A stretch of 59,551 nt of DNA from a virus (lineage: Duplodnaviria; Caudoviricetes), in the IMG/VR virus record IMGVR_UViG_3300036768_001410, positions 1 to 59,551 of that record. One strand, given 5' to 3'. The notes under the pieces are model-generated. The model did not search any database. It saw only the letters and a program-made list of their open reading frames with translations, and was not told the origin of the DNA. Both the position numbers and the translations under genes were made by a program. Shown piece by piece: positions 6,090-59,551 of the stretch (position 1 is its first letter; each line of letters begins with the position of its first letter).

Positions 6090-6243
6090 GGCAACGCCAA
6101 AAGAAAAGAGAGCCCCAATCGTGGAGAGCGAGTCAACGTCAACGAGAACCCCAAGGACTTCGAGCGAGCCATGCAGAGTGAAAACCCCATCATCAAAGAG
6201 CGAGCCAGTGCATCAGATAACCTCATGCGGAGGGAGCGAGCCA
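6090..6243 (+). ncRNA. TIGR-like array, upstream block (4 x 36-nt units)
   Basis: GAGCGAGCCA and GAGAACCCCA-like 10-mers alternate, separated by unique 8-mers, with an exact 36-nt period. Confidence 0.85.
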
Positions 6244-7266: not shown

Positions 7267-7565
7267 CTTGTAGCCGTTCCCCGAAAGAACCCCATAGAAA
7301 GAGAGCGAGCCTTGGGAAAAGAGAACCCCATTCCACGTGGGCGAGCCATAAAAGTAGAGAACCTCAAGTCGGCAGAGCGAGCATTTAAGACGAGAACCCC
7401 AGGGGATTTGGAACGAGCCATTCAAAGGAGAGAACCCCACCCTCGGTGAGCGAGCCATTTCCGTCGAGAACCTCATTCTGAGGGAGCGAGCAAGAGGGCG
7501 TGAGAACCCCACCTTAAGCGAGCGAGCCACAAGTGTTGAGAACTCCAGTAGAGCGGAGCGCGCTC
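7267..7565 (+). ncRNA. TIGR-like array, downstream block (about 8 x 36-nt units)
   Basis: Loop repeats at 7285, 7321, 7357, 7392, 7430, 7466, 7502, 7538; edge repeats at 7303, 7339, 7375, 7411, 7448, 7484, 7520, 7556. Confidence 0.88.
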
Positions 7566-13049: not shown

Positions 13050-13180
13050 AACGCACAAAATCGCCCGTAGGGACGTTCCAACACACGCTCCCGTATCCGA
13101 AGTATCCCGAACCCCTCCGACGTCCCTACGGTCAAATCTGTGCGTTTTTCGACCTTCCACAACCCTGATGTAACTAACCC
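13048..13180. repeat. Long palindromic element, copy 1, with downstream ECF-like promoter
   Basis: Arms AAAACGCACA..CCGTAGGGACGT / ACGTCCCTACGG..TGTGCGTTTT; homologous to 13973-14122 and 51345-51445. Confidence 0.8.
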
Positions 13181-13972: not shown

Positions 13973-14122
13973 AAAAACGCACAAAATCGCCCGCAGGGAC
14001 GTTAGAGAAGGCCGGGGATACTTCCGATACGAGAGACTCCCCTCCGACGTCTCTACGGGCAAATGCGTGCGTTTTTCGACCTTCCACAAACCTGATGTAA
14101 CGAACCCGACCCAAGAGTCGTC
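13973..14122. repeat. Long palindromic element, copy 2, with GTAAC-N17-CGTC promoter
   Basis: Direct repeat of copy 1 but with the central core inverted. Confidence 0.8.
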
Positions 14123-14673: not shown

Positions 14674-15282
14674 ATGTCAGGGAGCAGCTTGGACGATAGA
14701 GTCGAGGGATACGTGTCTCGTATTCTGAACGGGGAGGGGGAGGAGGAAGCGTTTGAGCGGTTGTATGAGGCGCTCAAGCCGTTGGTTCTTCAGAGAGCCC
14801 TCCGAGTTCTGAAGAACCGAACCGATGCGGAGGATGTCGTCCAGCTCGTATTCATACGGGTCTGGAAATGCATGTACCAATGGAATCCAGCCCGAGGTGC
14901 CTTCATGGGCTGGTTCAATGAGATAACTAAGAATATCATCATAGATGTTCTTAGGAATAATCGAAGGAGGAGAACTGACTATCTGTTTCAAAACGAGATT
15001 CTTGACGAAGAATTTCGTGAGAATCTCGTGTTTGAAACGAAGGAGAGGGTTGTTGCCTCCCCACATGAGGAGGTGGAGAGAAAGGAAATCATCGAAAAGG
15101 TTTTGGAGACGGTCGAGGGATTCGAGGATTCGCGGAAGCGACCGTGGAAGGCTCGATACCTGGACCATCTCAATGTCCGCGAAGTCGCGGACTTAGAAGG
15201 GAGGAATGAAAATACGATGAAGGTGGTGCTTCTTCGTACGAATCGGGCTATCAGAAACAAACTTGATTACATGTTGGTTTAG
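14674..15282 (+). CDS. ECF-type RNA polymerase sigma factor 1
   Basis: AFERLY...DAEDVVQLVFIRVW...WFNEITKNIIIDVLR (region 2); EVADLEGRNENTMKVVLLR (region 4). Confidence 0.9.
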   Translation: MSGSSLDDRVEGYVSRILNGEGEEEAFERLYEALKPLVLQRALRVLKNRTDAEDVVQLVFIRVWKCMYQWNPARGAFMGWFNEITKNIIIDVLRNNRRRRTDYLFQNEILDEEFRENLVFETKERVVASPHEEVERKEIIEKVLETVEGFEDSRKRPWKARYLDHLNVREVADLEGRNENTMKVVLLRTNRAIRNKLDYMLV

Positions 15283-45700: not shown

Positions 45701-48661
45701 CGGGAGCAGATAGGGGATTCTACTCGTGCTGATATTGGGGAGCGAATAGCCGTTTTGGATAGGAGTGTGGGTCGTTTGGAAACGGCACTTCAGCGGGGAA
45801 AATTGACTGAGCGGGCTATCCAGCGGTTGGAGCGTCAGCGACAGCGATTGTTGGAAGAGCGTCAAACGTTGATGTCGCGTTATAGTAGCGTTACGGAGGA
45901 GCCGTTTGATGTGGACACGGTGAAGGAGCATCTCAAAGACGCTCAGAGTGTCTTGAGGCAGGTGCGTCGAGATACGGCGTTTCACGAGCGTATTCGGGAG
46001 CGTGCGGACAAGATTCAGGTGACTATTGACTCTATCTTGTCGGATGAGGCGGCGCTCTTTGATAAGCTAGATGCCATCGCTGGTAAGAAGAACACGCCCC
46101 CAGAGGCGATTGATGCCGTGAAAGAGCAAATCCAGCGGGTTCATGGGCGCAGGATGAAGGTGCTCAATCGCCAACTGGAATCTCTTCAACAAGCTTTCAA
46201 GGAGCCCGATGCATATGACCCGTTGGTGTTCCATGTGGACGAATCCGGGAAGGTCATTACAACGCCTCTAACTCAAGCCGTCAACCGAGTCGAGCAACTA
46301 TCAAAGGCTCTCTCCGATGCCCGTTCCGTAGAAAAACTCTCTTCACAGGTTGCCGGCGTTGAAAAGGAACTCGAATTAAAGAACCAACGGCTTTCTACGT
46401 TATATCGCCAGACAGCGGATGCTACTACGGAAGATGCGCGGAATGCTCTAGCAGAGGAGATTACCAGCACGAAAGACGAAATCCGAGAGCTCAACAAGAA
46501 GCTTACCGTAGCAAGGAAGGTGGAGAAGAAAGAACGACTCCTTCGTCGAACCGAAACGGAACAAGAACGTATTGAAAATCAAATTGCTAACCTTATAGCC
46601 GGCATGCAAGAAACTCTAACGCTTGGGAGGAATGTTGACCTTGAAGAGCGTATTTTCGTCCGGCGAACACGTCGTACCGCCGAGCCTGTTGTCAGCGGAA
46701 AAGATGCAATCCTGAGGAATACAAATGAACGTGTCCGGGTAGTCAATGTATTCGACGAACCGCAACCCGATGGCTCTGTGCAGAAGAGGGCGATTATCCG
46801 ACGGAATGTAGGAACTACGGAGGAACGCGAAGAATCGGTTGAATATTCTAAGTTAAAGAGCATGCCGTCGTTCCAGCATCTTAGAATATTCACTCCAACG
46901 CAGGCCCATATCGAGCTAGTCAACGACGAGTTTGGCTTCATGTTTGACCCCAACTTTGTTCGTGCCGCGGCTACACGTGCTCAGGCACATGCGCGAACCG
47001 TGACTCTCAGTGAGTTATATGAGGAGTTAATTGATTCGGGGTTTGCAAAGCCGGTCTCGGAGGCTCCAAAGCAGGGATGGACTGAATCTCGTTACATAGA
47101 GGGCTATGCGGTTCCTAAGGAGGTAGAACAAGCCATTCATCAGGCGTTCTTCAACTGGGGAACCATGAATCCGGTATGGAAAAAGGCGGGGCTTATCTTC
47201 GATAAAATACAGCAAATTGATAAGCGATTCAAGACGCAGTACTTCCCCGGATTCACAATACAAAATATATGGTCGAACATGTGGAACATGTATACCACGA
47301 TTGGGGCAGAGACGTTCAATCCTGCCACGTCTGCGCTGGCCATGCAGCTTGTCCATCGGGACATGGTCACTAAGCGGTTGGAACGGAAAGCCGCTCTTGT
47401 TACGGAGGAAGGTGTTGCGGTACGTCGTGCATTAGAAACCCTCAATAATGAACCTATCTTGACGGATTTCAGTGGAAAGGAATGGACATGGGGGCAACTA
47501 AGGCAGGAGCTTCAGCGCCGCGACGTCGCCTTCACCGATTCATACTACGGCATTATTGACGATATGGATGCGCCCTTTGTAAAGAAGGCGCAGGGCATTC
47601 AGAAGCAAACGCCTCTGCGAAGGGTTATGGCTGCCGGAGGTAAGGTGCTTGAGGCCCCTATCGAGATGAACCAAGTGGTGGAGGAATTGGCCCGTGTTCA
47701 TGTGTTTCTATCGGAACTCAAAAAGGGAATGTCCCCGGATTTGGCGGCCGAGAGGGTTCAGCAGGCGCTCTTCCACTATCGCTCTGTAACGCCTTTCGAG
47801 AAATACGTCCTTTCTAGGCTCATCCCATTCTATAAGTTCTCTCGGAAAAACCTCGAACTTCAGGCAAAGGCATTAATCTCAGCACCGGGGCGCCTTGCTA
47901 TTCAACACAGAATGATGAATGCCCTAGAGGATGCCCTGGAAGAGGAACCCCTCGATGAAGACACCATGCAAACCCTGCCCCCTCACGTGAGGCAAGGGCT
48001 GGGGATTGTAATAAGGGCTAAGGAAGGCGGGCTAGTAAGTACAGTTAACTCTTTGCGAACTCCATTTGAGTCGGCGATGGAGACTGCTGAGGCTTTTGTG
48101 CCGGTTAAGCTAGCGCCGGAGATGAAGCTTAAGTCTCTGCAAGAGGGATTTTTGACATCGGGCGGGTTTGGCCTGCAGGCAACATCTTCGTTGATTCGAG
48201 TGCCTTTTGAAGTGCTAGCTAACGTGCGTGTCTTTGGTGGGTTCCGACAAATTGGCGATACGGTAGATATAACTTCTCTTTATAAACTGTCTCGATATAT
48301 TCCTCCTTTGGCTAAGACTGTAGACCTTCTTTTGGAGCCACGTCTCGATGTAGGTTCTGGGCAGGTAATAACATCTCATCCACGAGCGGCATATTTTCTT
48401 GCTCAGGCGATACCGGGGTTATCTAGGGCTACGGCGGACTTCGGGAAGATTGCTAACGAAAAACCTACAGCAATCGAAAAGTGGGTCGAGTTCATTAACA
48501 TCGCAGACCTATCTCACTTCACTCCAAAGGACTTTGTCGCTCTCAGGCAAAAGTGGTTCCAAGAGCAGGCTAAGAAGCAACGATATCTCCTATCGCCTAC
48601 TCCTCAGCAGATAAGCAACAACCAACCAGACATGCTCAACACGGAAAACTACATCAGATAG
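42794..48661 (+). CDS. Very large internal virion/DNA-transfer protein
   Basis: 1955 aa; FDPLNW, YAPH, PGFTIQN, and C-terminal LFHY..TPFEK..SRLIPFYKF typical of large podophage ejection proteins. Confidence 0.65.
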   Translation: MRAMRSTPMSTALQRAREEQEARERRLRELADAMNRSIGFAGARDNLSSAPALPVSRPDVGMMTTAQRAQVARGLSAFEPPTASERHALGIQVSKGLLPYEHAPKALPSLPSPPSPSSPPSPSSLSSSAPSSPSPSSSPSSLPAPSAPADVVSEDSNGDAESGRYQQLADAMNQAFARELGQQGPQGTPRFRGHGATAEIPEPEVPIGTFIKPELREWARNPLRNPLNPLDPRNISFLSALGAEAGLVAGKTVQETVKGIVGLWTATENELKQMPETIRRNSRSIVESVGTAAGLPEEDIQRGVSTASVVSSVAGAPASAAGKGMELLGRGVVQGLILPAFNAAQSAWWGVLTLGKEQTIGRLAGKEPTLGLSELGGAVLGKTEPIEARRFLFGETPRKGKQHLIEARIQNIRGELSDEELVKAVRMEAMKSIISGASNILFDPLNWITVGEGTAAKIAGREGAIALTRQGTRRLAEAIALGSEKAKGLVQLEKNVLVNRTLEEANAIRTGASDLSSVIQRTVSPQFTAKSQIINPSIAKDLMARGFKDAEVIDRVGEITGRAIQREVADWLKDLQFIARTGKRKLPDGTIQAVAPQERAFAKGFIRENVASGLLHVNYPTVTKSSTGAVRLAMSEKQFLDVGKYAAIASTIPQLQSVQKAVEGALAVPLSLISNNWVTDWKNLGRGGVQGRVPPVVAKLIGISRDNMMFRTQEVLKRLWNTAVENNLTPEESELVQTALDTGRSLDNPRLESLRQSLANDPVVNEGIRDGKRLLDLHTHILRAYPDIDAADATTILSAIKRNISLENPRLEAVRAQVADLYKDMIRIEQASGLTISEIEEGYAPHVLPPYRDALKQTKELLKRRGISKESPEWETTIRQVQSRYEEEGFLKKATTGKNPAFAKHRGLFLLTYQDEAGNLQQIIASPSTLLAKPTTLDKVLNGILAKPLSIREKLSQRIEDYNFSIQQLREQIGDSTRADIGERIAVLDRSVGRLETALQRGKLTERAIQRLERQRQRLLEERQTLMSRYSSVTEEPFDVDTVKEHLKDAQSVLRQVRRDTAFHERIRERADKIQVTIDSILSDEAALFDKLDAIAGKKNTPPEAIDAVKEQIQRVHGRRMKVLNRQLESLQQAFKEPDAYDPLVFHVDESGKVITTPLTQAVNRVEQLSKALSDARSVEKLSSQVAGVEKELELKNQRLSTLYRQTADATTEDARNALAEEITSTKDEIRELNKKLTVARKVEKKERLLRRTETEQERIENQIANLIAGMQETLTLGRNVDLEERIFVRRTRRTAEPVVSGKDAILRNTNERVRVVNVFDEPQPDGSVQKRAIIRRNVGTTEEREESVEYSKLKSMPSFQHLRIFTPTQAHIELVNDEFGFMFDPNFVRAAATRAQAHARTVTLSELYEELIDSGFAKPVSEAPKQGWTESRYIEGYAVPKEVEQAIHQAFFNWGTMNPVWKKAGLIFDKIQQIDKRFKTQYFPGFTIQNIWSNMWNMYTTIGAETFNPATSALAMQLVHRDMVTKRLERKAALVTEEGVAVRRALETLNNEPILTDFSGKEWTWGQLRQELQRRDVAFTDSYYGIIDDMDAPFVKKAQGIQKQTPLRRVMAAGGKVLEAPIEMNQVVEELARVHVFLSELKKGMSPDLAAERVQQALFHYRSVTPFEKYVLSRLIPFYKFSRKNLELQAKALISAPGRLAIQHRMMNALEDALEEEPLDEDTMQTLPPHVRQGLGIVIRAKEGGLVSTVNSLRTPFESAMETAEAFVPVKLAPEMKLKSLQEGFLTSGGFGLQATSSLIRVPFEVLANVRVFGGFRQIGDTVDITSLYKLSRYIPPLAKTVDLLLEPRLDVGSGQVITSHPRAAYFLAQAIPGLSRATADFGKIANEKPTAIEKWVEFINIADLSHFTPKDFVALRQKWFQEQAKKQRYLLSPTPQQISNNQPDMLNTENYIR

Positions 48662-48999: not shown

Positions 49000-49482
49000 A
49001 TGAGTAAGGGGCGTCGTATGCGAGTGGATTGGTCGCGATTGGAGTTGTATGCGTCGCAGGGGATATGGAGTGAGAGTCGTTTAGCGGTTTTATTGGGGTT
49101 GAGTCCGACGTTGTTGCATGCCCGATTGATGAGCGATGCGGAGTTTCGTAGTCGTTGGGAGGAGGCATTGAATAGGGGGAAGGTGGAGATGGAGCTTCGG
49201 TTGTTGAATCGTTTAGAGGAGCGTAGTTCAGAGGGGGATGTTGGGGCGACGGTACAGTTGCTGAGGCGTTTGGAGAAGGACGATAGGGAGGGTTTGTTAG
49301 GAGGGCGGGGTGAGGTTCGCGTTGTAGTGGAGGATGTAGACGTAGCGGGATTGTTGTCGTCGGCAGAGGTTCAGGAGGTGGAGTGGTCACGTCGTAGTCT
49401 AGGTAGGCGTTTGGCGGTTCATGGGCAACGGGAGTTAGAGATAGAGGTGGAGGGGGATGGAGAGGAAGTCGAGGAAGGTTAG
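49000..49482 (+). CDS. terS: Terminase small subunit (putative)
   Basis: HTH followed by EFRSRWEEALNRGK...EGDVGATVQLL pattern. Confidence 0.6.
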   Translation: MSKGRRMRVDWSRLELYASQGIWSESRLAVLLGLSPTLLHARLMSDAEFRSRWEEALNRGKVEMELRLLNRLEERSSEGDVGATVQLLRRLEKDDREGLLGGRGEVRVVVEDVDVAGLLSSAEVQEVEWSRRSLGRRLAVHGQRELEIEVEGDGEEVEEG

Positions 49483-50041
49483 AGATAAGGGTCGTATAGA
49501 GGAGTTGGCGTTGCGTTATAAGGAGAGTCGCGATGAGGCTACATTTGGGTTGTTATACGAATCTTGTAGGGGGTTAGTTTTGGAGTGGAGTAGGGGGATG
49601 GGATTGGATTCCGATTTAGAGGACGTGGAGCAGGAGGTATGGCTATTGGTATTCCGTAAGATAGGCCTGTGGGAGAGTAGAGGGAATAGTTTTTTGAATT
49701 GGCTTTATGTATTGACTCGTAATGTAGTTCGTATGTGGCATAGGAGTAGGAATAGAGAGTTAGAGGGTCGTAGTAGTTATACGAGTTATATGGAGTATCG
49801 TCGTTCTGCGGATGAGTTGCGATGTGTATTGGAGTTGGAGCGTCGGTTACGGATATTAGATGTAGAGCGTTTATCTAGGGAAGTATTAGGGTCTAAGTTA
49901 TCCGAAATAGTATCGTATAGGGTTCAAGGACTATCTCCGGCCGTAGTAGCAGAGTTGCTAGGCAAGAGTAGGGGATCAATTTGCGTATCGTTTCATCGAG
50001 GTGTACATCGCCTTCTGTCGAGGATGTCATGTATTGCGTAA
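49457..50041 (+). CDS. ECF-type sigma factor 2
   Basis: FGLLYE..DLEDVEQEVWLLVFRKI..FLNWLYVLTRN; GLSPAVVAELLGKSRGSI..HRG. Confidence 0.85.
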   Translation: MERKSRKVRDKGRIEELALRYKESRDEATFGLLYESCRGLVLEWSRGMGLDSDLEDVEQEVWLLVFRKIGLWESRGNSFLNWLYVLTRNVVRMWHRSRNRELEGRSSYTSYMEYRRSADELRCVLELERRLRILDVERLSREVLGSKLSEIVSYRVQGLSPAVVAELLGKSRGSICVSFHRGVHRLLSRMSCIA

Positions 50042-50806: not shown

Positions 50807-51382
50807 ATGGACAACGAGGCGATGGATGCAATGCGTGTGAAGAACGCAAATGCGGTTCTTGCGCGAGTGATATTCCGCCATGCGTGGATAACTCGTCGAA
50901 TCGAGGAGATTGAGCATGAACTTTCCATTTATCGAGAGTACTACGACTCGCTGTCTTCATTGTTGTCTCTCGTAGAGGGGCGTTCGAGGGATTCAAGGGA
51001 GTTGGATTCAGCAAAGTCGCCGTTGGATGATGGCTTTCGATTCCGTAATGCGGAAGTAGAGGTTAGCCGGTGGCTACGACAACATTCGTTCGTGGATGGG
51101 CCCGTAACGGATATGAGCGGGAAGGTTGGGTTCAAGCTTCCCGACGGTAATGTTTGGGTTGATGCGTCCGCGTTTGAAGAGGCTTTTGGAGAGAGATACG
51201 ATGTGCGGGCATTGCTGGGTCATCTGGCTCGGCAGGGCTTGATAGAGACGATTCGGGACCACGAAGGGAAGCTTCGGTTTCGTGTGTATCGAAGGATAGG
51301 CGGGCATCGTCGTTCGTTTATCGTGTTTCGTAAGGGGTTCGCCGGAAAAACGCACGCATTTGCCCTTAGGGGCGTTCGATGA
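50807..51382 (+). CDS. Protein with a DUF927/Cch C-terminal wHTH-like domain
   Basis: VGF..VWV..AFEE..YDVRALL..L...GLIE..GK..IGG pattern; its 3' end runs into palindrome copy 3. Confidence 0.45.
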   Translation: MDNEAMDAMRVKNANAVLARVIFRHAWITRRIEEIEHELSIYREYYDSLSSLLSLVEGRSRDSRELDSAKSPLDDGFRFRNAEVEVSRWLRQHSFVDGPVTDMSGKVGFKLPDGNVWVDASAFEEAFGERYDVRALLGHLARQGLIETIRDHEGKLRFRVYRRIGGHRRSFIVFRKGFAGKTHAFALRGVR

Positions 51383-51445
51383 GGGTCTCACGTATCTGAA
51401 CTATCCCGGCACGATTTGAAGCGCTGTACGCGCCCCAGAATGCGC
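51345..51445. repeat. Long palindromic element, copy 3 (degenerate, reversed relative to copy 2)
   Basis: GAAAAACGCACGCATTTGCCC..CTCACGTATCTGAACTATCCCG aligns to the reverse complement of 14014-14077. Confidence 0.7.
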
Positions 51446-51478
51446 CGTATATAGCAACGCCTTTCAGAAAATTTCGTA

Positions 51479-51600
51479 GTAACTTTTTTCGTGCGCTTTT
51501 CGTTTATCCTCTTGACATACTACGCCGTTCGTAGTATACTGTAGTCAACGTCGTCGAGGGTTGGTCGGGCATGGGGTCCGGCGCGGCGGCGGAGGAGAAA
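51479..51600 (+). promoter_or_regulatory. Cassette 1 control region: ECF promoter, sigma70 promoter with operator, leader hairpin
   Basis: GTAAC-N17-CGTT; TTGACA-TACTACGCCGTTCGTAG-TATACT. Confidence 0.8.
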
Positions 51601-51605
51601 AGGGA

Positions 51606-52286
51606 ATGTTGCCTGAAGAAGTTATTACTATTCTTCTACAGGAGACGAAGTCTCTTGTAGGTAGAAATTTCAAGGTCTTCGAGTCTGCCCTCCGTAGGGC
51701 AGCTCAAGAGCTGCCATTGGAATGGTGGCAGCAACGGCTGAATCTCACTGTAGAGGAACTCCTCCGTCAAAGTGAGATTCGGTGGCGGGTGGGAGAAGTA
51801 GCCGCAGAGGTGGTGAAGGCCACAAGAGCGGCTGCAGCAGAAAGGCTCCCGGAAGCCGTGAAAACGGTTGCCCAGGAGATCGAGACCGAATTTTTCGGTC
51901 TTCCTCACCCACCAATTAAGGGTGGCGTGATGGAGACTGAACAATATCTCACGCGGGAATGGTTCGCGTGGGGTTCCGAAAAGGAGGAGGGTCACTATAC
52001 GGAGACGGTGCCCCTCCTTCCGAAGGGGGCACACGACTCCGCAGCGTGGAAGGAGATAATCCTTGCACGTCTTGCGGAGGTGTGCGGCCTCCAAAGCCCT
52101 CCTGTCGAAATTGAGGAGGGCGCGGAGGAAGGTGCCGAGCCGGAGTCCTCTATTTTGAGGGAGGCCCGGCGTATCTACAAGGAACTCTTTGTGGAGGTGG
52201 AGTGTCGCCTCCGCAATGAGGATAAGTACGAAAGCCCCGTGCGAGTACGGGTGGCCGTACCTCGTGGATGGCTATCGGAATCTTAG
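51606..52286 (+). CDS. Hypothetical early protein
   Basis: ATG follows the conserved leader and SD. Confidence 0.65.
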   Translation: MLPEEVITILLQETKSLVGRNFKVFESALRRAAQELPLEWWQQRLNLTVEELLRQSEIRWRVGEVAAEVVKATRAAAAERLPEAVKTVAQEIETEFFGLPHPPIKGGVMETEQYLTREWFAWGSEKEEGHYTETVPLLPKGAHDSAAWKEIILARLAEVCGLQSPPVEIEEGAEEGAEPESSILREARRIYKELFVEVECRLRNEDKYESPVRVRVAVPRGWLSES

Positions 52287-52298
52287 GAGGAAGAGAAG

Positions 52299-52556
52299 AT
52301 GAGTCATCATACATTCGATTCCCTCCTCGGCAATGCCGAGGTGAGGATGAAGAAGGCATGGTGGCGGTATGTATCCGCCATGAGAGAGGAGGACAAACTG
52401 AAAGACGCCATCAAGTTTGGCGTCATCAAAGAAACCCGCAAGGTGAGAGAACTTCGGAAGCTTCTCCGAAGAAAAACGGAGAAGGCTTCTAAGGAATGGA
52501 TAGACTATTCTAATCGTCTCATCGCCCTCTACGAGAGGGCTAAGAAGGAGGAGTAA
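52299..52556 (+). CDS. Small helical basic protein
   Basis: AGGAGG SD. Confidence 0.6.
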   Translation: MSHHTFDSLLGNAEVRMKKAWWRYVSAMREEDKLKDAIKFGVIKETRKVRELRKLLRRKTEKASKEWIDYSNRLIALYERAKKEE

Positions 52557-52557
52557 C

Positions 52558-52920
52558 ATGTTCTTTAACGTAAGCAACCACCCTCACGAGAAGTGGGGGG
52601 AACGCCAGCTGGAAGAGGCTCGGCGGCTCGGCGGGGAAATTGTGGACATCCCCTTCCCCAACGTATCGCCGACGCTGGATACCGAGGAGTTGGAGGACCT
52701 CGTGTATTCTGTTATCAAGCAGGTACACGAGAAGCGGGATGGCAAACAAGATGTCGCTCTTGTCCAGGGCGAGCACACTCTTACGTTCTTGCTAGTCAAT
52801 AAGCTGGCGGAACTTGGGGTCGTGCCCGTCGCTGCCACTTCGGAGCGGCGAGTGACCGAGACTCCACAAGGGAAAGTCTCGGTATTTGAATTCTGCAAGT
52901 TCCGCCGCTATCCGTTTTAG
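52558..52920 (+). CDS. Csx20-like stand-alone protein (candidate ring nuclease/anti-CRISPR)
   Basis: N..NHP..W...Q, DIPFP, D.ALVQGE, ATSER..E, F.F.KFRRY, matching the Csx20-family layout. Confidence 0.6.
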   Translation: MFFNVSNHPHEKWGERQLEEARRLGGEIVDIPFPNVSPTLDTEELEDLVYSVIKQVHEKRDGKQDVALVQGEHTLTFLLVNKLAELGVVPVAATSERRVTETPQGKVSVFEFCKFRRYPF

Positions 52921-52928
52921 GTTTCCAT

Positions 52929-52961
52929 AGCGCCCGTCGCCTACAAGCGGCGGGCGCTTTT
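52929..52961 (+). terminator. Intrinsic terminator
   Basis: AGCGCCCGTCGC/GCGGCGGGCGCT followed by TTT. Confidence 0.7.
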
Positions 52962-52976
52962 GCTTAGGAGAATAAA

Positions 52977-53159
52977 ATGCGCCCATACTCATTTTTGTAT
53001 GAGACACCGGAAGAGGCGGAGGAAGCCCGCCTCTTGGACTTCCTAGAATGCCTTCACGACGAATACGAAGGCATGGAACTTCTGTTCGACGATGTCCGTG
53101 AGATGTTGCGGCAAGCGGGAGTTTTCCTCCATCAGGAGGATGAATATGAGATTTCGTAA
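52977..53159 (+). CDS. Small acidic protein
   Basis: AGGAG SD; Glu/Asp-rich, 60 aa. Confidence 0.55.
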   Translation: MRPYSFLYETPEEAEEARLLDFLECLHDEYEGMELLFDDVREMLRQAGVFLHQEDEYEIS

Positions 53160-54117
53160 GATTGTCCTTAAGAACTGGAAGAACTTCAGGGAAACTGAAA
53201 TTAAGGTCGGTGACCATCTCATTCTCGTCGGGGAAAACGCGTCGGGCAAGTCTAACTTGCTCGATGCGTTCCGGTTTTTAAGGGACATTTCCTCCGATGG
53301 AGGAAGCCTGCAGAAGGCAGTGCTGAGTCGAGGAGGAATGAGAAGTATCCGTAACTTTTATGTAAAACAAGAAGATGTATCAATACGCGTGGAGATGGAA
53401 GACGAGTTCGGGAAGCAATGGATTTACGAACTTGTCTTCAAACAAGCCTCACGACCACGAAAAGAAGTGGAGGTCGTGAAAGAATATGTTGCATTCGATG
53501 GACGTTCCTTGCTGGAACGTTCGAATGAAGAAGACAGGAAAGACCCGGCTCGATTGTCTGCGTCTTTTCTGCGTTCTACTGTGGCAAACAAGGACTTTCG
53601 GGTGATTCCAGAGTTTTTCTCTTCTATTCGATTCGCGGGAAGCTTCCTGTGGGAAATGGAAACTACGCCTACTGAGATTCTAGCGTCAAATTTGACGCTC
53701 ATTGAGTGGGAGCTTCAGGATGCCTTGAAGATTAATTTGAGGCTTTCAGTAGAGGAAGAGTACGGACGTACGTCTATCCTCTTTCGGATTGGGCGTAGGA
53801 AAATAAGGGAAGAAGATGTCTCAGAGGGAACGTTTCGGCTGATGGGGTTGCTTTGGGATGCCCTCAATGCAACGGGTCCTCTCCTGATAGAAGAACCGGA
53901 ACGTCATCTTGCTCCAGGGACAGCGTTAAAGCTGTCCAACATCTTGAAAAGGATTAACCCCGACCTCCAAATCATCGCGACTACGAATTCCCACTACGTA
54001 ATTGACAGTTTCGGAGCCATCAACACCGTACGTCTGTTGCGGGCATCGAAGGAAACCCACGTTGTAGAGGGATTAACCTATGTGATGGCGATTATGTTGA
54101 GCCATGCGGAACTCTAG
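53146..54117 (+). CDS. AAA_21/SMC-like ABC ATPase of the defence type, without a nuclease partner
   Basis: LKNWKNF, VGENASGKSN, SEGT signature, LLIEEPE..L.P, and TTNS in place of the usual TTHS. Confidence 0.85.
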   Translation: MRFRKIVLKNWKNFRETEIKVGDHLILVGENASGKSNLLDAFRFLRDISSDGGSLQKAVLSRGGMRSIRNFYVKQEDVSIRVEMEDEFGKQWIYELVFKQASRPRKEVEVVKEYVAFDGRSLLERSNEEDRKDPARLSASFLRSTVANKDFRVIPEFFSSIRFAGSFLWEMETTPTEILASNLTLIEWELQDALKINLRLSVEEEYGRTSILFRIGRRKIREEDVSEGTFRLMGLLWDALNATGPLLIEEPERHLAPGTALKLSNILKRINPDLQIIATTNSHYVIDSFGAINTVRLLRASKETHVVEGLTYVMAIMLSHAEL

Positions 54118-54133
54118 TCCTCACTCTCGTCCT

Positions 54134-54431
54134 CGCCCCTACCAGAAACCCAGTAGGGGCGTCATCATCTATGCCGTCACCGAACCCGTCATCGCAACCG
54201 TCAGCGACGCCGTCAGCGACTCCGCCGCGTAGCCGCCTGACCGCGCCCCCCGACCCCAACAACCGCGCCCTCTACCTGAGAACGAAGCCCGCCCCACGAC
54301 TCCCCAACAAAATTTTCGAGATTCGCGCAAAATCCCCTTGACACACTACGCATTGTGTAGTATGATACGTATAGAAGCCGCTGGGGACGGTCGGGCAAGG
54401 AGCCCGACGCGGCGGCGGGAGGAGAGAAGAA
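54134..54431 (+). promoter_or_regulatory. Cassette 2 control region: hairpin, CCGTCA repeats, sigma70 promoter with operator, leader
   Basis: TTGACA(54338)-CACTACGCATTGTGTAG-TATGAT. Confidence 0.85.
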
Positions 54432-55277
54432 ATGAACTCGGTGGCTTTCAGCCCGGACGGACAATATTTCGCGACGGGTTTGCTGGATAAGACGGCGCGG
54501 CTTTGGGAAGTCGATTCGGGTCGGGAAGTCCGCACGTTCACCGGACATACGCGCGGAGTGAATTCGGTGGCGTTCAGCCCGGACGGACGCTATCTCGCGA
54601 CGGGCTCGTGGGATAGGACGGCGCGGCTTTGGGAAGTCGATTCGGGTCGGGAAGTCCGCACGTTCACCGGACATACGCGCGGAGTGACCCCGGTAGCGTT
54701 CAGCCCGGATGGACAATATTTCGCGACGGGTTCGCTGGATAAGACGGTGCGTCTTTGGGACGTCGCCTCGGGGCGGGAAGTCCGCACGTTCACCGGACAT
54801 ACGCGCGGAGTGACCTCGGTAGCGTTCAGCCCGGACGGACAATATTTCGCGACGGGCTCGTGGGATGATACGGCGCGTCTTTGGGACGTCGCCTCGGGTC
54901 GGGAAGTCCGCACGTTCGTCGGGCATACGCACTGGGTGTGGTCGGTAGCGTTCAGCCCGGATGGACAATATCTCGCGACCGGTTCGGATGATAAGACGGC
55001 GCGTCTTTGGGACGTCGCCTCGGGTCGGGAAATCCACATGTTCACCGGACATACGCACTGGGTGTGGTCGGTGGCGTTCAGCCCGGATGGACAATATCTC
55101 GCGACCGGTTCGGATGATAAGACGGCGCGGCTTTGGGACGTCGCCTCGGGTCGGGAAGTCCGCACGTTCACCGGACATACGCGCGGAGTGACCTCGGTAG
55201 CGTTCAGCCCGGACGGACGCTATCTCGCGACGGATTCGGCTGACAAGACGACGCGGATTTTGGAGGTCGCGCTGTAG
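54432..55277 (+). CDS. WD40 beta-propeller protein A (7 repeats)
   Basis: Seven VAFSPDG..AT..D.T.R repeats, about 126-bp near-identical units. Confidence 0.95.
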   Translation: MNSVAFSPDGQYFATGLLDKTARLWEVDSGREVRTFTGHTRGVNSVAFSPDGRYLATGSWDRTARLWEVDSGREVRTFTGHTRGVTPVAFSPDGQYFATGSLDKTVRLWDVASGREVRTFTGHTRGVTSVAFSPDGQYFATGSWDDTARLWDVASGREVRTFVGHTHWVWSVAFSPDGQYLATGSDDKTARLWDVASGREIHMFTGHTHWVWSVAFSPDGQYLATGSDDKTARLWDVASGREVRTFTGHTRGVTSVAFSPDGRYLATDSADKTTRILEVAL

Positions 55278-55282
55278 GTTGC

Positions 55283-55618
55283 GCCCCGCCATTGACAACA
55301 ATGGCGGGGCATTATTATGTACGCCCTCCGACGTCACCACCAACGACGGCAACGTCATCGCGACCGTCACCTTTGGCCGTCATCTAGCCGTCAGCGACTA
55401 AGCCGATTAGCCGCTTGACCGCGACTCCACGACCCCGCCTACCGCGCCCCCTCCCCCACCTGAGGGCGAAGCCCACTCCACGAAGCGACTACAAAATTTT
55501 GGGGGCTTCGCTCAAAATCCTCTTGACACACTACGCAATGCGTAGTAGGCTACGTATAGACGCCGCTGGGGGACGGTCGAGCACAACGCTCGACGCGGCG
55601 GCGGCAGGAGGAAAGGGA
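55283..55618 (+). promoter_or_regulatory. Cassette 3 control region
   Basis: Hairpin GCCCCGCCATTG/CAATGGCGGGGC; TTGACA(55523)-CACTACGCAATGCGTAG-TAGGCT; leader. Confidence 0.85.
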
Positions 55619-56272
55619 ATGCTTCTCGCGACGGGATCGGATGATAAGACGGCGCGGCTATGGGAAGTCGCGTCGGGCAGGGAAGTCCGCACGTTCGCAG
55701 GGAATATGGGCCCTGTGTGGTCGGTGGCGTTCAGCCCCGACGGCCGTTATCTCGCTACGGCCTTGGCGGATAGGACAGCGCGTCTTTGGGACGTCGCTTT
55801 GGGTCGAGAAGTCCGCATGTTTGCCGGGCGTAGGGACTCGGTGAATGCGGTGGCCTTCAGCCTCGACGGCCGCTATCTCGCGACTGCATTGGCGGACAGG
55901 ACAGCGCGTCTTTGGGACGTCGCTTTGGGTCGAGAAGTCCGCATGTTTGCCGGTCATACGGGCCCGATGTGGTCGGTGGCGTTTAGCCCCGACGGACGCT
56001 ATCTCGCCACGGGCTCCTGGGATAGGACCTCGCGTCTTTGGGACATCGCTTTGGGTCAGGAAGTCCGCATATTCGCCGGACATACGGGCCCGGTGTGGTC
56101 GGTCGCCTTCAGCCCGGACGGGCGGTATCTCGCTACGGGTTCGGCGGACAGGACTGCGCGGCTATGGGAAGTCGCGTCGGGTCAGGAAGTCCGTCGGCAT
56201 AACGGGCATACGGACTTAGTGAGATCGGTTGCGTTCAGCCCGAACGGACTCCATCTCGCGACGGGCTCATAG
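55619..56272 (+). CDS. WD40 protein B (5 permuted repeats; probable start 55619)
   Basis: Begins MLLATGS and ends LATGS; the upstream ORF extension is promoter sequence. Confidence 0.9.
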   Translation: MLLATGSDDKTARLWEVASGREVRTFAGNMGPVWSVAFSPDGRYLATALADRTARLWDVALGREVRMFAGRRDSVNAVAFSLDGRYLATALADRTARLWDVALGREVRMFAGHTGPMWSVAFSPDGRYLATGSWDRTSRLWDIALGQEVRIFAGHTGPVWSVAFSPDGRYLATGSADRTARLWEVASGQEVRRHNGHTDLVRSVAFSPNGLHLATGS

Positions 56273-56288
56273 GAACGGACGTAGCCGG

Positions 56289-56625
56289 AAGCCTAGCCTA
56301 CTCATCACGTAGGCTAGGCTTCTTTCTTTCAAGCCGCCGCAACCCCCGCCGCCAACGTCATCCAAACCGTCAGCGAACCCGTCATCGCGACCGTCAGCGA
56401 GGCCGTCAGCGAATCCTCCGAGTAGCCGCTTGACCGCGCCACCAGACACACCAACCGCGCTCTCTACCTGAGAACGAAGACCGCCCCACGACTCCCCGAC
56501 AAAATTTTGGGGGATTCGCGCAAAATACCCTTGACAATCTACGCAAGACGTAGTATGCCTACATACAGAAGCCGCTGGGGACGGCCGAGCGTGGTGTTCG
56601 GCGCGGCGGCGCAGGAGGCAGAAAG
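56289..56625 (+). promoter_or_regulatory. Cassette 4 control region
   Basis: Terminator AAGCCTAGCCTAC/GTAGGCTAGGCTT; CCGTCA repeats; TTGACA(56531)-ATCTACGCAAGACGTAG-TATGCC. Confidence 0.85.
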
Positions 56626-57495
56626 ATGAAGTGGGTTTACGGTCATACGGCGGGGGTGCGGTCGGTCGCGTTCAGCCCGGAAGGGTGGTATCTAGCTACC
56701 GGCTCTTCGGACTGGACGGCGAGGCTGTGGGAGGTGGCCTCGGAAAGGGAGGTCCGCCGTTTCGTCGGGCATACGGACGCGGTAACGTCGGTCGCGTTCC
56801 GCCCGGACGGACGTTATCTCGCGACGGGTTCGGAGGATAACACGGCGCGGCTTTGGGAGGTGGAATCGGAAAGGGAGGTCCGCCGGTTCGTCGGGCATAC
56901 GTACTGGGTGAGCGCGGTCGCCTTCAGCCCGGACGGCCGCTATCTCGCGACGGGTTCGCTGGATAAAACGGCACGGCTTTGGGAAGTCGCTTCGGGGCGG
57001 GAAGTCCGCCGGTTCGACGGCCATACGACAACCGTATGGTCGGTCGCGCTCAGCCCGGACGGGAGGTATCTCGCAACTAGCTCGTGGGACGGTGAGGCAC
57101 GGCTTTGGGAGGTCGCCTCAGGGCAGGAAGTCCACTGCTTCTCCGGTCATACGGACCCGGTATGGTCGGTTGCCTTCAGCCCCGACGGCCGCTATCTCGC
57201 GACGGGCTCGCTGGATAAGACTGCACGGCTTTGGGACGTCGCCTCGGGTCGGGAGGTCCGACGGTTCACCCGACACGCTAAGGCCGTGCGGGCGGTTGCC
57301 TTTAGCCCGGACGGGCGGTATCTCGCGACCGGTTCGGAGGATAAGACAGCGCGGGTTTGGGACGTCTCCTCGGGTCGGGAGGTCCACCGTTTCTTCGGAT
57401 ACATGGACTGGGTGAGCGCGGTCGCGTTCAGCCCGGACGGCCGCTATCTCGCTACCAGTGCCGATGAGAAAGCGGCACTGGTGTTGACGCTATGA
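56626..57495 (+). CDS. WD40 beta-propeller protein C (7 repeats)
   Basis: Seven GH..V..VAFSPDG-type repeats. Confidence 0.95.
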   Translation: MKWVYGHTAGVRSVAFSPEGWYLATGSSDWTARLWEVASEREVRRFVGHTDAVTSVAFRPDGRYLATGSEDNTARLWEVESEREVRRFVGHTYWVSAVAFSPDGRYLATGSLDKTARLWEVASGREVRRFDGHTTTVWSVALSPDGRYLATSSWDGEARLWEVASGQEVHCFSGHTDPVWSVAFSPDGRYLATGSLDKTARLWDVASGREVRRFTRHAKAVRAVAFSPDGRYLATGSEDKTARVWDVSSGREVHRFFGYMDWVSAVAFSPDGRYLATSADEKAALVLTL

Positions 57496-57512
57496 AGCTA
57501 TGATTGCGTCAA

Positions 57513-57909
57513 AAGCCCCGCTTAATCCAACAGCGGGGCTTCATTATGTACGCCCGCCGACAACGCCACCAACGACGGCAACGTCATCTAGCCGTCATCG
57601 CGACCGTCAGCGAACCCGTCATCGCGACTGTCATCGCGACCGTCAGCGACGCCGCCACAAGTCTCCGCGCCTTCCGCCCACGCGGAAACTTGTGACCGCG
57701 CCCACAATCTCATGGCGCCGGCATATGAGATGGCCTTGCGAACGTGCTCTCAATCACAATCTCATCTGCGTGGACACCAAAAGAAAATTGCGTGACGCGC
57801 GCAAAATTCTCTTGACAGTCTACGTAGGACGTAATACTATACATACAGACGCCGCTGGGGACGGTCGAGCACAACGCTCGACGCGGCGGTGCGAGTAGGA
57901 GAACGGAAG
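57513..57909 (+). promoter_or_regulatory. Cassette 5 control region
   Basis: Hairpin; CCGTCA repeats; TTGACA(57812)-GTCTACGTAGGACGTAA-TACTAT; leader nearly identical to cassette 3. Confidence 0.85.
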
Positions 57910-58299
57910 ATGAGCGAGAGACACGTCGTAGACGTGGACGACGGCCAAGTACTCCTAATCGTAGACCAGGCAGGGGTGTTTGACGTGGCGGCCGGGAATG
58001 TTCCTGGCCACGTTTGGATCGTTGAAGAAGGTGACGAAGAGGTCCCTTGGGTTGTGTACTCACGGGACAATGCAAGGGTTGTCATCCTCCCGCCCCCGAG
58101 AACATGGGGGGCAAAGACCGAAGAGGAAATGTTCCACCGATTTGGTGACCTTCGATCCGCCCGTTTCTGGCATCACCAAGCCTTTGAAACGGGTGCCTTT
58201 CGGGAAATTGTCGCCCACTACAGGCCAGACCTTCTGGCCGTATGGGCGGAAAATGAGGCGGCGGTCGCCGCGCTAGATGAACCCCTTGTAACTGAGTAG
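57910..58299 (+). CDS. Hypothetical early protein
   Basis: AGGAG SD after the leader; followed by a hairpin at 58303-58330. Confidence 0.65.
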   Translation: MSERHVVDVDDGQVLLIVDQAGVFDVAAGNVPGHVWIVEEGDEEVPWVVYSRDNARVVILPPPRTWGAKTEEEMFHRFGDLRSARFWHHQAFETGAFREIVAHYRPDLLAVWAENEAAVAALDEPLVTE

Positions 58300-58302
58300 G
58301 GA

Positions 58303-58992
58303 AATGCCCCTCTCGTGAGAGAGGGGCATTATTATGTACCGGGAGAGCCGTCACCTAGCCCTCATCTAGCCATCAGCGGCAACGCCTTCCAATCCGTAGT
58401 CACCTAACCGTCATCCAACCCGCCAACGCCAACGTCATCCAAACCGTCAGCGACAATCACGTGACCGTCATCCTGCCGTCATCCAAACCGTCAACGACAA
58501 CGTCATCGGTGTCGGACGCAACGTGACTCCGCCGCCGGCAAGAGCCGAGGGGTGTTCGACTCTGCCTTATTCGCGCCCTGATTCTGGCCAGATTCTTCGT
58601 GATATTGTAAGAGAATCGCTTGTCCAAAGTATGAGATATCCTGTCTTATGAGACGTCCTTGTGATTGTGAGCGCAATCACAATGTCCTGTCGTCTGCTGT
58701 GGCATGGGCAAGGGCATGGCTATGAGATGGCCTTAGTCTGCTGTGGCGTAGGCATGGCATAGGCAAGGCTAGGGATAGGGTTGGCGTAGGGATAGGGATA
58801 GGCAAGGGATAGGCTAGGACGTGGGCTTGGACGTGGGCTTGGACGTGAACGTGACCGCCGAAAGAAAATTGCGTCGAGCGCGCAAAATTGTCTTGACACA
58901 CTACGTGATGCGTAGTATGATGGGGATAGGCGCTTCCGTAGGAGAGTCGGGCACGGCGCCCGACGCGGGAGCGGCAGGAGGGAAAGAAAGAG
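58303..58992 (+). promoter_or_regulatory. Cassette 6 control region, including a G-rich tract and an inverted-repeat arm
   Basis: TTGACA(58893)-CACTACGTGATGCGTAG-TATGAT; CCGTCA repeats at 58345-58510. Confidence 0.8.
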
Positions 58993-59388
58993 ATGAGCGT
59001 CGAGGACATGGACGAGTCGTGGGACGAGGAAGAGGACGAGTACGAAGACGAGTGGGAAGAAGAGGTGGAGTTTCGTTCCACGGTAGACGCCATTGTAGGC
59101 GTCGTCGTGGACGATGATGGTGAGGAACACTATGTGCGACGGTTAGAAACCGTCTACACGTCGTGGACGGAATATGAGCAGGATGCCTCTGTAGTGGAGG
59201 TGGACCTGAGTGACTGGGCGCGGTGGTTGTGGTCTATCCACCTGGCCAAGTGCCGGGCGGAAGAATTGCCACCTGGCCACCCCTCCTTGGACCACTGTCC
59301 ACTCCGCGAGCAGTGGCGATGGCAAGAGCGTGGAGATATCGCGGGCCTCGCGGAGGCCTGCGATGAGTGGAGGATGACGACGGGCTAA
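58993..59388 (+). CDS. Highly acidic protein (DNA-mimic candidate)
   Basis: MSVEDMDESWDEEEDEYEDEWEEEVE; AGGAGG SD. Confidence 0.7.
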   Translation: MSVEDMDESWDEEEDEYEDEWEEEVEFRSTVDAIVGVVVDDDGEEHYVRRLETVYTSWTEYEQDASVVEVDLSDWARWLWSIHLAKCRAEELPPGHPSLDHCPLREQWRWQERGDIAGLAEACDEWRMTTG

Positions 59389-59390
59389 GA

Positions 59391-59466
59391 TATAGCCCGT
59401 CGCAGTCAAGCGACGGGCTATCCTAAGCCAAGGCGTCTCGCTCGTGAGAGCGAGACGCTTTCTTTA
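59391..59466 (+). terminator. Tandem hairpins/terminator
   Basis: ATAGCCCGTCGC/GCGACGGGCTAT and GGCGTCTCGCTC-GTGA-GAGCGAGACGCT followed by TTCTTT. Confidence 0.75.
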
Positions 59467-59517
59467 TGCCTCTCCCCTTGACCGACTCATCCGTCCTCCT
59501 AAGGACGCTTCATCCTA

Positions 59518-59551
59518 ACATTGTGATTGCGCTCACAATCACAAGGACGTC
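59518..59551 (-). repeat. 34-bp perfect inverted copy of 58652-58685 at the window end
   Basis: Reverse complement is GACGTCCTTGTGATTGTGAGCGCAATCACAATGT. Confidence 0.9.

Follow-up and report, generated by a model that had tools for sequence, protein, structure and literature searches.

Free WRAP-type WD40 propellers under a six-fold promoter/operator/leader module shared with a Csx20-like gene in the accessory arm of a large phage

What would a bacteriophage gain from three separate genes for WD40 proteins that carry no other domain? The question is raised by the right arm of a linear virus record of 59,551 bp in IMG/VR (IMGVR_UViG_3300036768_001410; this whole stretch is called the window below), whose completeness was estimated by CheckV at 43%. 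Here three genes, WD1, WD2 and WD3, encode free WD40 propellers, and each stands behind a copy of a promoter/operator/leader module that occurs six times and also heads an operon with a gene resembling Csx20. The interest of the locus lies in this combination: rare free propellers of the PkwA/WRAP type (“WD40-family recently amplified propellers”) inside a six-unit operator/hairpin regulon together with a ring-nuclease-like gene.

Bacterial NOD-like receptor (NLR)-like proteins with WD40 or TPR sensors detect conserved phage proteins, and phage countermeasures are barely known; several free propeller copies on one phage are concrete candidates for countering such immunity. The explanation that we rank first, while holding it tentatively, is that the three genes encode co-regulated accessory binders in an island of counter-defence type. 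A counter-defence role for the WD proteins themselves is argued by analogy and is put forward a shade more tentatively still. If the propellers were inert, the locus would still show capture and turnover of repeat-protein fragments in phage accessory regions.

Domain composition and fold of the WD40 proteins

A sequence-only reading of this stretch had described three stand-alone WD40 genes, and profile searches agree: each protein matches the Pfam WD40 family (PF00400; whole-protein cut-off 27 bits) with the scores given in Table 1, and 19 of the 20 WD40 matches across the record lie above the cut-off. Only WD40-type families match WD1–3, with no NACHT, NB-ARC or nSTAND NTPase domain in any of them, and no N-terminal signal-like stretch was read in the proteins. 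They appear to be free-standing, cytoplasmic propellers of PkwA/WRAP type, encoded by the accessory right arm of this large metagenomic phage. Tandem Repeats Finder returned a 126-nt period, and cutting on the V-A-F-S-P-D-G anchor yielded 20 units in an exact 42-aa register, of which three to five, at the gene ends, are partial. The earlier count of about 19 near-identical 42-aa repeats holds for the strict register and nearly for the number (20 units), but near-identical they are not, with DNA identities of 59–95%.

The AlphaFold2 model of WD1 (predicted local distance difference test, pLDDT, 97.8) has 27 strands in seven blades and no closing strand. The protein begins at strand a of blade 1 and ends past strand c of blade 7, which has three strands because the N-terminal velcro strand is missing. 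In WD3, the N-terminal K-W-V-Y precedes the first G-H and is equivalent to strand d, while the C-terminus lies past strand c of blade 7; its sequence predicts a complete ring in the canonical velcro arrangement, which the K-W-V-Y strand can close.

WD2 comprises one partial blade (strands b-c-d), four full blades and strands a-b of a sixth unit. Its true start is the ATG at 55619, which follows a Shine-Dalgarno site and is the homologous start; a TTG at 55415 was rejected as the start, since that frame would cross WD2's own promoter. The stop is a TAG at the hypervariable codon 23, and the three codons beyond it still read E-R-T (cf. D-[KR]-T); the record-level WD40 match reads through this one TAG. 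The AlphaFold2 model of WD2 (pLDDT 97.7, 21 strands) superposes on seven-bladed propellers over 214–217 columns with a root-mean-square deviation (rmsd) of 0.7–1.1 Å and a template-modelling score, by target, of 0.72–0.73. From this superposition the protein is predicted to form an open five-sevenths arc and not a closed five-blade ring. Against the WD40 domain of PkwA (5yzv) the model shows 50% identity at an rmsd of 1.0–1.1 Å, and it also matches 2ymu. WD2 may be a decaying remnant, or it may work as an oligomer.

Propellers of the PkwA/WRAP type are frequent in Cyanobacteria, Actinobacteria and Chloroflexi, are often broken by stops or frameshifts and have been linked to innate immunity (PMC6805158, PMC9218822; these and all papers below are cited from excerpts). 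The phage proteins resemble the known members (5yzv, 2ymu) in their 42-residue units, consensus, seven blades and high internal unit identity, in the occurrence of truncated copies (PMC6805158, PMC9218822) and in their five most variable positions, which are the same. They differ in being free-standing and short (217–289 aa), without a kinase, NTPase, TIR or caspase part, and in their phage location behind a regulatory module of phage type. WRAP itself shows zero synonymous differences between blades, whereas the synonymous divergence (dS) in the phage WD genes is 0.22–0.82.

A promoter, operator and leader module in six copies

Each WD gene would be a transcription unit of its own: a host-type sigma70 promoter with an operator in its spacer, then the leader hairpin, Shine-Dalgarno site, gene and terminator. 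The combined promoter/palindrome pattern has six matches in the window, all on the + strand and within 51.5–58.9 kb, compared with none in 100 shuffles. All six modules carry variants of the operator CTACG-N5(6)-[CT]GTA[GA], and the promoters, also covered by a promoter scan, are of sigma70 type. The leader forms two stacked helices of 15 pairs. Over six related copies, a small sample, 97.8% of the cells are paired, and compensatory changes are seen at four pairs, one of them being G-C in three copies and A-U in the other three; the covariation score was reached by none of 500 shuffles, and slid controls pair at 31–51%.

The cassettes at the right end (WD1–3, orf4 and orf5) share further parts, namely a terminator, ATTATTATGTAC, 12-nt repeats, an A/T-flanked element, the promoter, the leader hairpin and the Shine-Dalgarno site. 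The 12-nt repeat matches 20 times in the window, where 2.0 matches are expected, and 15 of the 20 fall within 54174–58496. These repeats (CCGTCAGCGAnn / CCGTCATCGCGA) sit between a terminator and the following promoter. At 59450–59551, past the terminators of orf5, CATCC-type 12-nt units appear again, so the cassette array probably extends past the contig end.

Because the same module drives all six transcription units, we treat them as one regulon. Judging from the sequence, the WD genes are quite probably co-regulated with the Csx20 unit. The six-fold module also marks regulon members without reference to homology, including two acidic orphan genes.

Table 1. Positions of the six modules, the genes behind them and the associated elements
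Feature	Coordinates	Strand	Details
Module copy 0	51512..51605	+	TTGACA-17-TATACT, CTACG-N5-CGTAG palindrome in spacer, leader hairpin, Shine-Dalgarno site
First regulon unit	51606..54117	+	headed by module copy 0
orf226	51606-52286	+	
orf85	52299-52556	+	basic, 85 aa, isoelectric point (pI) 10
Csx20-like gene	52558-52920	+	120 aa; PADLOC
Small acidic open reading frame (ORF)	52977-53159	+	
HEC-01A/AriA-like ABC ATPase	53092-54117	+	PADLOC HEC-01A, E 5e-66; Pfam AAA_21, E 5e-23
12-nt tandem repeats ahead of WD1 promoter	54161..54232	+	CCGTCANCG core; repeat search
WD1 module	54338..54431	+	TTGACA-17-TATGAT and palindrome, leader hairpin ~54376-54417, Shine-Dalgarno site
WD1	54432..55277	+	281 aa, seven blades; Pfam WD40 E 7e-101, 327 bits, 7 stretches
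Terminator hairpin past WD1	55283..55310	+	followed by conserved ATTATTATGTAC
Similar 12-nt arrays	55388-55396, 56354-56413, 57591-57662, 58407-58522		
WD2 module	55523..55618	+	promoter/palindrome/leader pattern
WD2	55619..56272	+	217 aa, five-blade fragment; Pfam WD40 E 5e-66, 217 bits, 5 stretches
Terminator hairpin past WD2	56287..56323	+	
WD3 module	56531..56625	+	promoter/palindrome/leader pattern
WD3	56626..57495	+	289 aa, seven blades; Pfam WD40 E 9e-91, 295 bits, 7 stretches
Terminator-like hairpin past WD3	57513..57541	+	followed by CATTATGTAC; read from sequence; repeat family
Fourth cassette	57812..58326	+	module 57812-57909, orf4 57910-58299, terminator 58309-58326
orf4	57910-58299	+	129 aa, pI 4.6, no family
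Fifth cassette	58893..59388	+	module 58893-58992, orf5 58993-59388
orf5	58993-59388	+	131 aa, 39 D+E (30%), pI 4.05, no family, no relatives

The closest parallel to the module comes from loci under anti-CRISPR-associated (Aca) repressors. A 2026 study describes mobile elements with csx20 homologues in operons that have, in their promoters, an inverted repeat to which the repressor Aca14 binds; the Aca14-type motif recurs ahead of neighbouring operons, and Aca1 and Aca2 bind hairpins in the 5' untranslated region (5'UTR) (PMC13551039). The loci of that study and the window share an inverted repeat within a strong promoter, a conserved 5'UTR hairpin, a motif that recurs ahead of several operons, and csx20-like cargo. 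They differ in that no Aca-like helix-turn-helix (HTH) or ribbon-helix-helix (RHH) protein was recognised in the window, and in that the phage palindrome lies between −35 and −10. By analogy we infer that the regulon is probably switched on early and then shut off, Aca-style, by a protein that binds the operator and the hairpin.

A search of IMG/VR with the promoter motif gave 27 stretches, several of which resemble true promoters of the same design; none has the window's leader, and the 24 downstream ORFs taken from them include no match to the window. A pattern search with the leader found no stretch in IMG/VR. The promoter architecture itself (TTGACA, CTACG-N5-CGTAG in the spacer and a TA-rich −10) is seen in the unrelated IMG/VR contigs L016, L017, L018/L026, L027/L034, L029/L033 and L035, where some copies precede a leader hairpin and, in L016, an XRE-type HTH gene follows directly. 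Such an operator-in-spacer design may be widespread in phages. Candidate kin of the 12-nt repeat numbered at least 119 stretches in IMG/VR, but nearly all of the 80 inspected were unrelated six-base CCG-TNA/GAA coding repeats and were set aside. Among them only the contig L147 has the CCGTCAGCGAAC 12-nt unit, after a hairpin (6780–6839), and it has otherwise nothing in common with the window.

The Csx20-like operon and the orphan genes

The Csx20-like protein aligns through residues 1–118 with positions 1–114 of the 114-position PADLOC profile PDLC01397 (E 7e-29), and its precomputed Pfam family is PF27247. A protein 84% identical to it is encoded on a 2.6-kb JGI contig. Csx20 is a proven ring nuclease that degrades cyclic tetra-adenylate (cA4) (10.1101/2024.09.24.614671). 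From its sequence the phage protein is a candidate anti-CRISPR ring nuclease acting against type III cA4 signalling.

The HEC-01A/AriA-like ATPase is encoded by a gene of defence type, for which no partner gene was recognised. With this ATPase as the anchor, no locus was found in IMG/VR and 11 in JGI metagenomes, at 29–49% identity. The acidic composition of orf5 is reminiscent of that of DNA-mimic anti-restriction proteins.

Variation and selection among the repeat units

Sequence entropy over the 20 units peaks at unit positions 4, 5, 7, 23 and 25, plus 40 and 42, with 1.8–2.8 bits compared with at most 1.4 elsewhere. Positions 4, 5 and 7 follow G-H-T and precede V-A-F, and positions 23 and 25 flank a D, which is where variation had been noticed by eye; at 40 and 42 the differences are chiefly between genes. 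On the WD1 AlphaFold2 model, strands a–d occupy unit positions 6–11, 17–22, 27–31 and 37–41, so that 4, 5 and 42 fall in the d-a loop, 23 and 25 in the b-c loop, and 7 where strand a begins. By established WD40 topology, these two loops make up the top face of a blade.

The scaffold between these sites had been described as homogenised by concerted evolution, and this stands for WD1 but not for the other two genes. DNA identity between units is 76–95% in WD1, 70–87% in WD2 and 59–84% in WD3, the most diverged; mean amino-acid identity is 0.82 (best pair 0.93), 0.75 and 0.74, respectively, and scaffold dS is 0.22, 0.69 and 0.82. In a tree of the 20 units, all seven WD1 units form one clade, in which the first partial unit of WD2 is nested; units 2–4 of WD2 group together, and the WD3 units are deep and scattered. 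With both the low dS and the clade confined to WD1, recent amplification or homogenisation is visible in that gene only. In WD2 and WD3, the shared scaffold is maintained by purifying selection on the protein, with pairwise scaffold dN/dS values of 0.19 and 0.17 (0.37 in WD1).

The diversification proposed for the variable positions did not emerge. Tree-based parsimony counts at the seven variable sites gave N=77 and S=16, corresponding to an omega of 1.15–1.30 (binomial p=0.21 for a non-synonymous excess), in a test with sites chosen post hoc, divergence close to saturation and recombination left outside the model. The remaining 35 unit sites have an omega of 0.24 on the tree. Such values are compatible with unconstrained surface loops as much as with diversifying selection. 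The sequence-only reading had asked whether the variable positions are buried or neutral: on the WD1 model most of them lie in or at the d-a and b-c loops, and statistically they do not depart significantly from neutrality.

Bacterial homologues vary at the same positions. Within single proteins (n=50), mean entropy is 1.7–1.9 bits at 4, 5, 7, 23 and 25 and at most 0.96 elsewhere, so the variability pattern is ordinary for this class of WD40 proteins. This comparison used a unit profile on the 120 best similar-length homologues plus the three phage proteins, 53 of which had at least four clean units, and the homologues, being chosen by likeness to WD1, are biased to consensus-like repeats. For mean unit identity the median is 0.65 and the highest value 0.86; among the 53 proteins, WD1 ranks 3rd, WD2 17th and WD3 20th.

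The fungal HET-E/D/R and NWD NLR proteins offer a second comparison, as they have similar scaffold repeats with variation at a few surface positions per unit (PMC4986451). In excerpts of that work the fungal NWD repeats are ~85% identical and show both concerted evolution and positive selection (PMC4986451), whereas the phage units have mean identities of 0.74–0.82, and none of the three genes reaches the internal identity of ≥85% over at least 100 aa used there as a criterion, WD1 being borderline. The phage genes also lack NACHT, only WD1 clusters by gene, and an omega of ~1.2 is not significant. No reverse transcriptase of the kind expected for a diversity-generating retroelement was found in the Pfam and PHROGs scans run, the 1924-aa and 1955-aa ORFs being among those unscanned.

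Proposed role of the propellers

The module copies that drive the WD genes also drive a CRISPR ring-nuclease-like gene, which makes the WD genes testable counter-defence candidates by guilt-by-association with their Csx20-like neighbour. We infer that the propellers most likely bind proteins by their top face, through d-a and b-c loops that vary both among blades and among genes. Their likeliest targets would be defence or regulatory proteins of the host, or else phage proteins recognised by host sensors.

Several results weigh against this proposal. The variable sites do not depart significantly from neutrality (omega ~1.2, p=0.21). WD2 is truncated, and the three genes start and end at differing repeat phases, which fits fragment capture. 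The Csx20-like protein scores 49.6 bits, below the NCBIfam NF040559 cut-off of 70. An HTH- or RHH-type regulator was not recognised, orf85 having only a KorB match at E 0.021. All six modules lie in the right arm, past the last clear virion gene (end 48661), and the tie to the phage core is limited to one shared repeat and a 31%-identical sigma-like paralogue in a record with a CheckV estimate of 43%. Finally, the sole close phage relative, a 21.8-kb fragment, stops short of the WD40 region.

The truncation points to an explanation that needs little or no function, in which pieces of host WRAP-type arrays were gained by recombination between cassettes and are now decaying. The leaders are joined to the WD genes at three different repeat phases, which suggests separate captures or truncations of longer arrays, and the five-blade arc of WD2 with its in-frame stop inside a blade, the missing velcro strand of WD1 and the high GC content at third codon positions (GC3; 0.70–0.75 in the WD genes compared with 0.41–0.61 in core genes, an accessory, acquired look) would all fit; disrupted WRAP propellers are, moreover, common in bacteria (PMC9218822). 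However, promoter, leader, Shine-Dalgarno site and terminator are intact in all three genes, WD3 is predicted to be a complete ring, and scaffold dN/dS is 0.17–0.37, though this may partly reflect history before capture. Fragments alone need not be dead, as in vitro the five-blade fragments of PkwA and WRAP do fold, and form dimers (PMC6805158). On balance we regard mere decay as unlikely, although it is the strongest of the alternatives to co-regulated accessory binders.

Relatives and origin

WD40 is rare cargo in phages, as the sequence-only reading had supposed. In a tblastn search of WD3 against 50,697 phage records, two matched at E ≤ 1e-5, both below 37% identity: Salicola phage SCTP-2 (36.5%) and a Clostridioides phage-plasmid (31.7%). 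PHROGs gave matches only within profiles of 1023 and 4158 positions, in BFVD the closest structures belong to BTB/WD proteins of giant viruses and to a few phage propellers, and pattern scans of IMG/VR with WD3 and with the three-gene alignment returned no relatives. The giant-virus BTB/WD proteins and that of SCTP-2 are, like WD1–3, canonical propellers in viral genomes; unlike WD1–3, they are 13–37% identical, are mostly parts of larger proteins and belong to giant viruses or a 440-kb phage, and none forms a set of small single-domain cassettes.

Cellular homologues are abundant. Among candidates of similar length, 7977 of the 8000 scored were homologues at E ≤ 1e-3; among longer ones, 7759 of 8000 at E ≤ 1e-60; and in species-representative genomes 596 of the 600 pattern stretches were relatives. 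For the three phage proteins the best identities to bacterial proteins among the matches are 63%, 64% and 59%, and the top matches span many phyla. With identities this low and this widely spread, no donor can be named: the suggested search for a host STAND-WD40 donor yielded nothing above 64% identity among cellular proteins, species-representative genomes or longer homologues. Of the 120 longer homologues listed, 23 are named as TIR, nSTAND1, NACHT, NB-ARC, caspase or trypsin-STAND proteins, 10 as kinases (Ser/Thr kinase fusions), and most as plain WD40 proteins. These names identify the scaffold as a C-terminal module of bacterial conflict and signalling proteins.

The first group of names invites a more specific idea, that the propellers are copies of the WD40 sensors of host STAND, caspase or TIR proteins and act as decoys, soaking up the phage protein that is detected or poisoning sensor oligomers. 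A WRAP-type propeller would here have been freed from its effector and, in several copies with different surfaces, would share an Aca-like early regulon with a cA4 ring nuclease. WD40 propellers do act as sensors in bacterial defence STAND proteins (PMC13581612), as had been stated in the earlier reading, STAND-type names occur among the longer homologues, and WRAP-type propellers have been linked with innate immunity in bacteria (PMC9218822); the co-regulation with the Csx20-like gene would suit a decoy as well. On the other side, best bacterial identities of 59–64% mean that no sensor is closely mimicked, the list of longer homologues also holds the kinases and a majority of plain WD40 proteins, and omega at the surface sites is ~1. 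According to our literature search WD40 proteins are not among the known anti-CRISPR or anti-defence families, and a search combining WD40, phage-encoded and anti-defense found no paper. We consider the decoy scenario improbable as it stands. If true, it would provide the first WD40 anti-defence family and the first virus that disarms bacterial NLR-like immunity via the receptor's ligand-binding domain.

The 10 Ser/Thr kinase fusions among the 120 lead to an equally improbable alternative, in which the propellers would be host-takeover scaffolds outside immunity that recruit or sequester regulators of a mat-forming host (e.g. kinase, protease or cell-cell signalling partners). WD40 serves as a generic scaffold, and among solved structures the closest is a kinase's WD40 domain, that of PkwA; but the only genes of the regulon with an assigned family are defence-related.

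Phage membership of the island

The window encodes a clamp-like processivity factor, an O-like replication initiator, DnaB, a large terminase, a portal and a major head protein, as well as RusA, an N6/N4 DNA methylase and an M15 peptidase. No tRNA was found in it and no Rfam family at gathering thresholds. A megablast search with 24 kb of the phage core gave no nucleotide match among deposited phages, and through the portal a single close phage relative was found in IMG/VR, 97% identical, on the above-mentioned 21.8-kb fragment without WD40. The GC content is ~50% as far as 54 kb and 62% over 54–58 kb.

This step raises the possibility that the island is host chromosome or another mobile element beside a prophage, i.e. 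a bacterial defence island, of which Csx20, HEC-01A and WD40 genes are all typical, and none of the six modules lies in the core. Packaging of the island as phage DNA is less certain for the latter reason, all six being past the last recognisable virion gene. Against a host flank stands an element of ~63 nt shared with the core, 83% alike between 14015–14077 and 51345–51407, just upstream of module 0. The core is further tied to the island by the sigma-like paralogue (31% identical), by uniform gene orientation, the island genes being co-oriented with the virion genes, and by a GC3 that is mosaic (0.45–0.75) and not uniform. No integrase, tRNA or att-like feature was found with part of the ORFs scanned, cas genes are absent, and the contig would make up an estimated 43% of a larger phage. 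We therefore judge a host flank to be slightly less probable than either the decoy or the takeover scenario, and the WD genes to be, very probably, real phage-borne genes.

Assembly integrity

Two microbial-mat sequencing runs carry the stretch: X1, probably the source sample, with 94% of the sampled words, and X2, from a separate study that shares its year and habitat, with 42%. Contigs of X1 cover 51146–54476, 55204–55598, 55924–57021, 57135–57886 and 57857–59520 with zero differences at a depth of 9–12, and the first of them spans the GC step and enters WD1. Pieces from X2 include 56055–56375 and 57237–57581 (two differences) and others. The interior of WD1 (54476–55204) was not shown to be bridged by any single public contig. 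The longest exact repeat in 54400–57520 is 71 nt, which ordinary reads can resolve, so a chimera or collapse is unlikely.

A repeat-driven chimera or collapsed array is accordingly a very remote prospect, since every gene junction is bridged by X1 at even depth and several are bridged in X2 too, the frames are intact and the WD1 and WD2 models fold with pLDDT ~98, even though the WD1 interior is unbridged, many foreign WD40 contigs cross-map and the contig ends are inverted copies of internal sequence. Repeat shuffling, for which the sequence-only reading had proposed a look at reads, is not visible in public contigs. Contig “joints” that might have indicated it have sides of 20–32 nt at the 85% threshold and were taken as cross-mapping of WD40 genes from other organisms.

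Other features of the window

Two divergent proteins with sigma-70 region 2 are encoded at 14674–15282 and 49457–50041 (31% identical over 67 aa). With these two sigma-like proteins, recognised by sequence, the phage may redirect transcription itself.

A palindromic element of the form AAAACGCAC...GGGACGT / ACGTCCC...GTGCGTTTT is present in three copies (13048–13148, 13974–14107 and 51345–51407), two of which flank an AAA_25 gene, the third lying directly upstream of the first regulon promoter. Within the gene for the O-like replication initiator, at 10212–10436, at least nine iteron-like repeats of 18 nt (CTCGCATATTGCTAGTAA) occur together with inverted copies; this array is likely to be the replication origin.

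A 36-nt periodic repeat (GAGAACCCCA...GAGCGAGCC) occurs in seven copies at 6144–6241 and 7285–7563, around the gene 6273–7256, which has a weak PHROG match labelled 'transposase'. At 39308–39487, seven 18-nt repeats code for N-Q-G-T-G-x within the 1924-aa ORF.

The ends of the contig are perfect inverted copies of internal sequence. Positions 1–116 correspond to 48338–48453, inside the 3' end of the gene for the 1955-aa protein, and 59518–59551 correspond to 58652–58685, the two 34-nt copies flanking the orf5 cassette. They could be genomic inverted repeats or invertible segments, or else branch points of the assembly graph.

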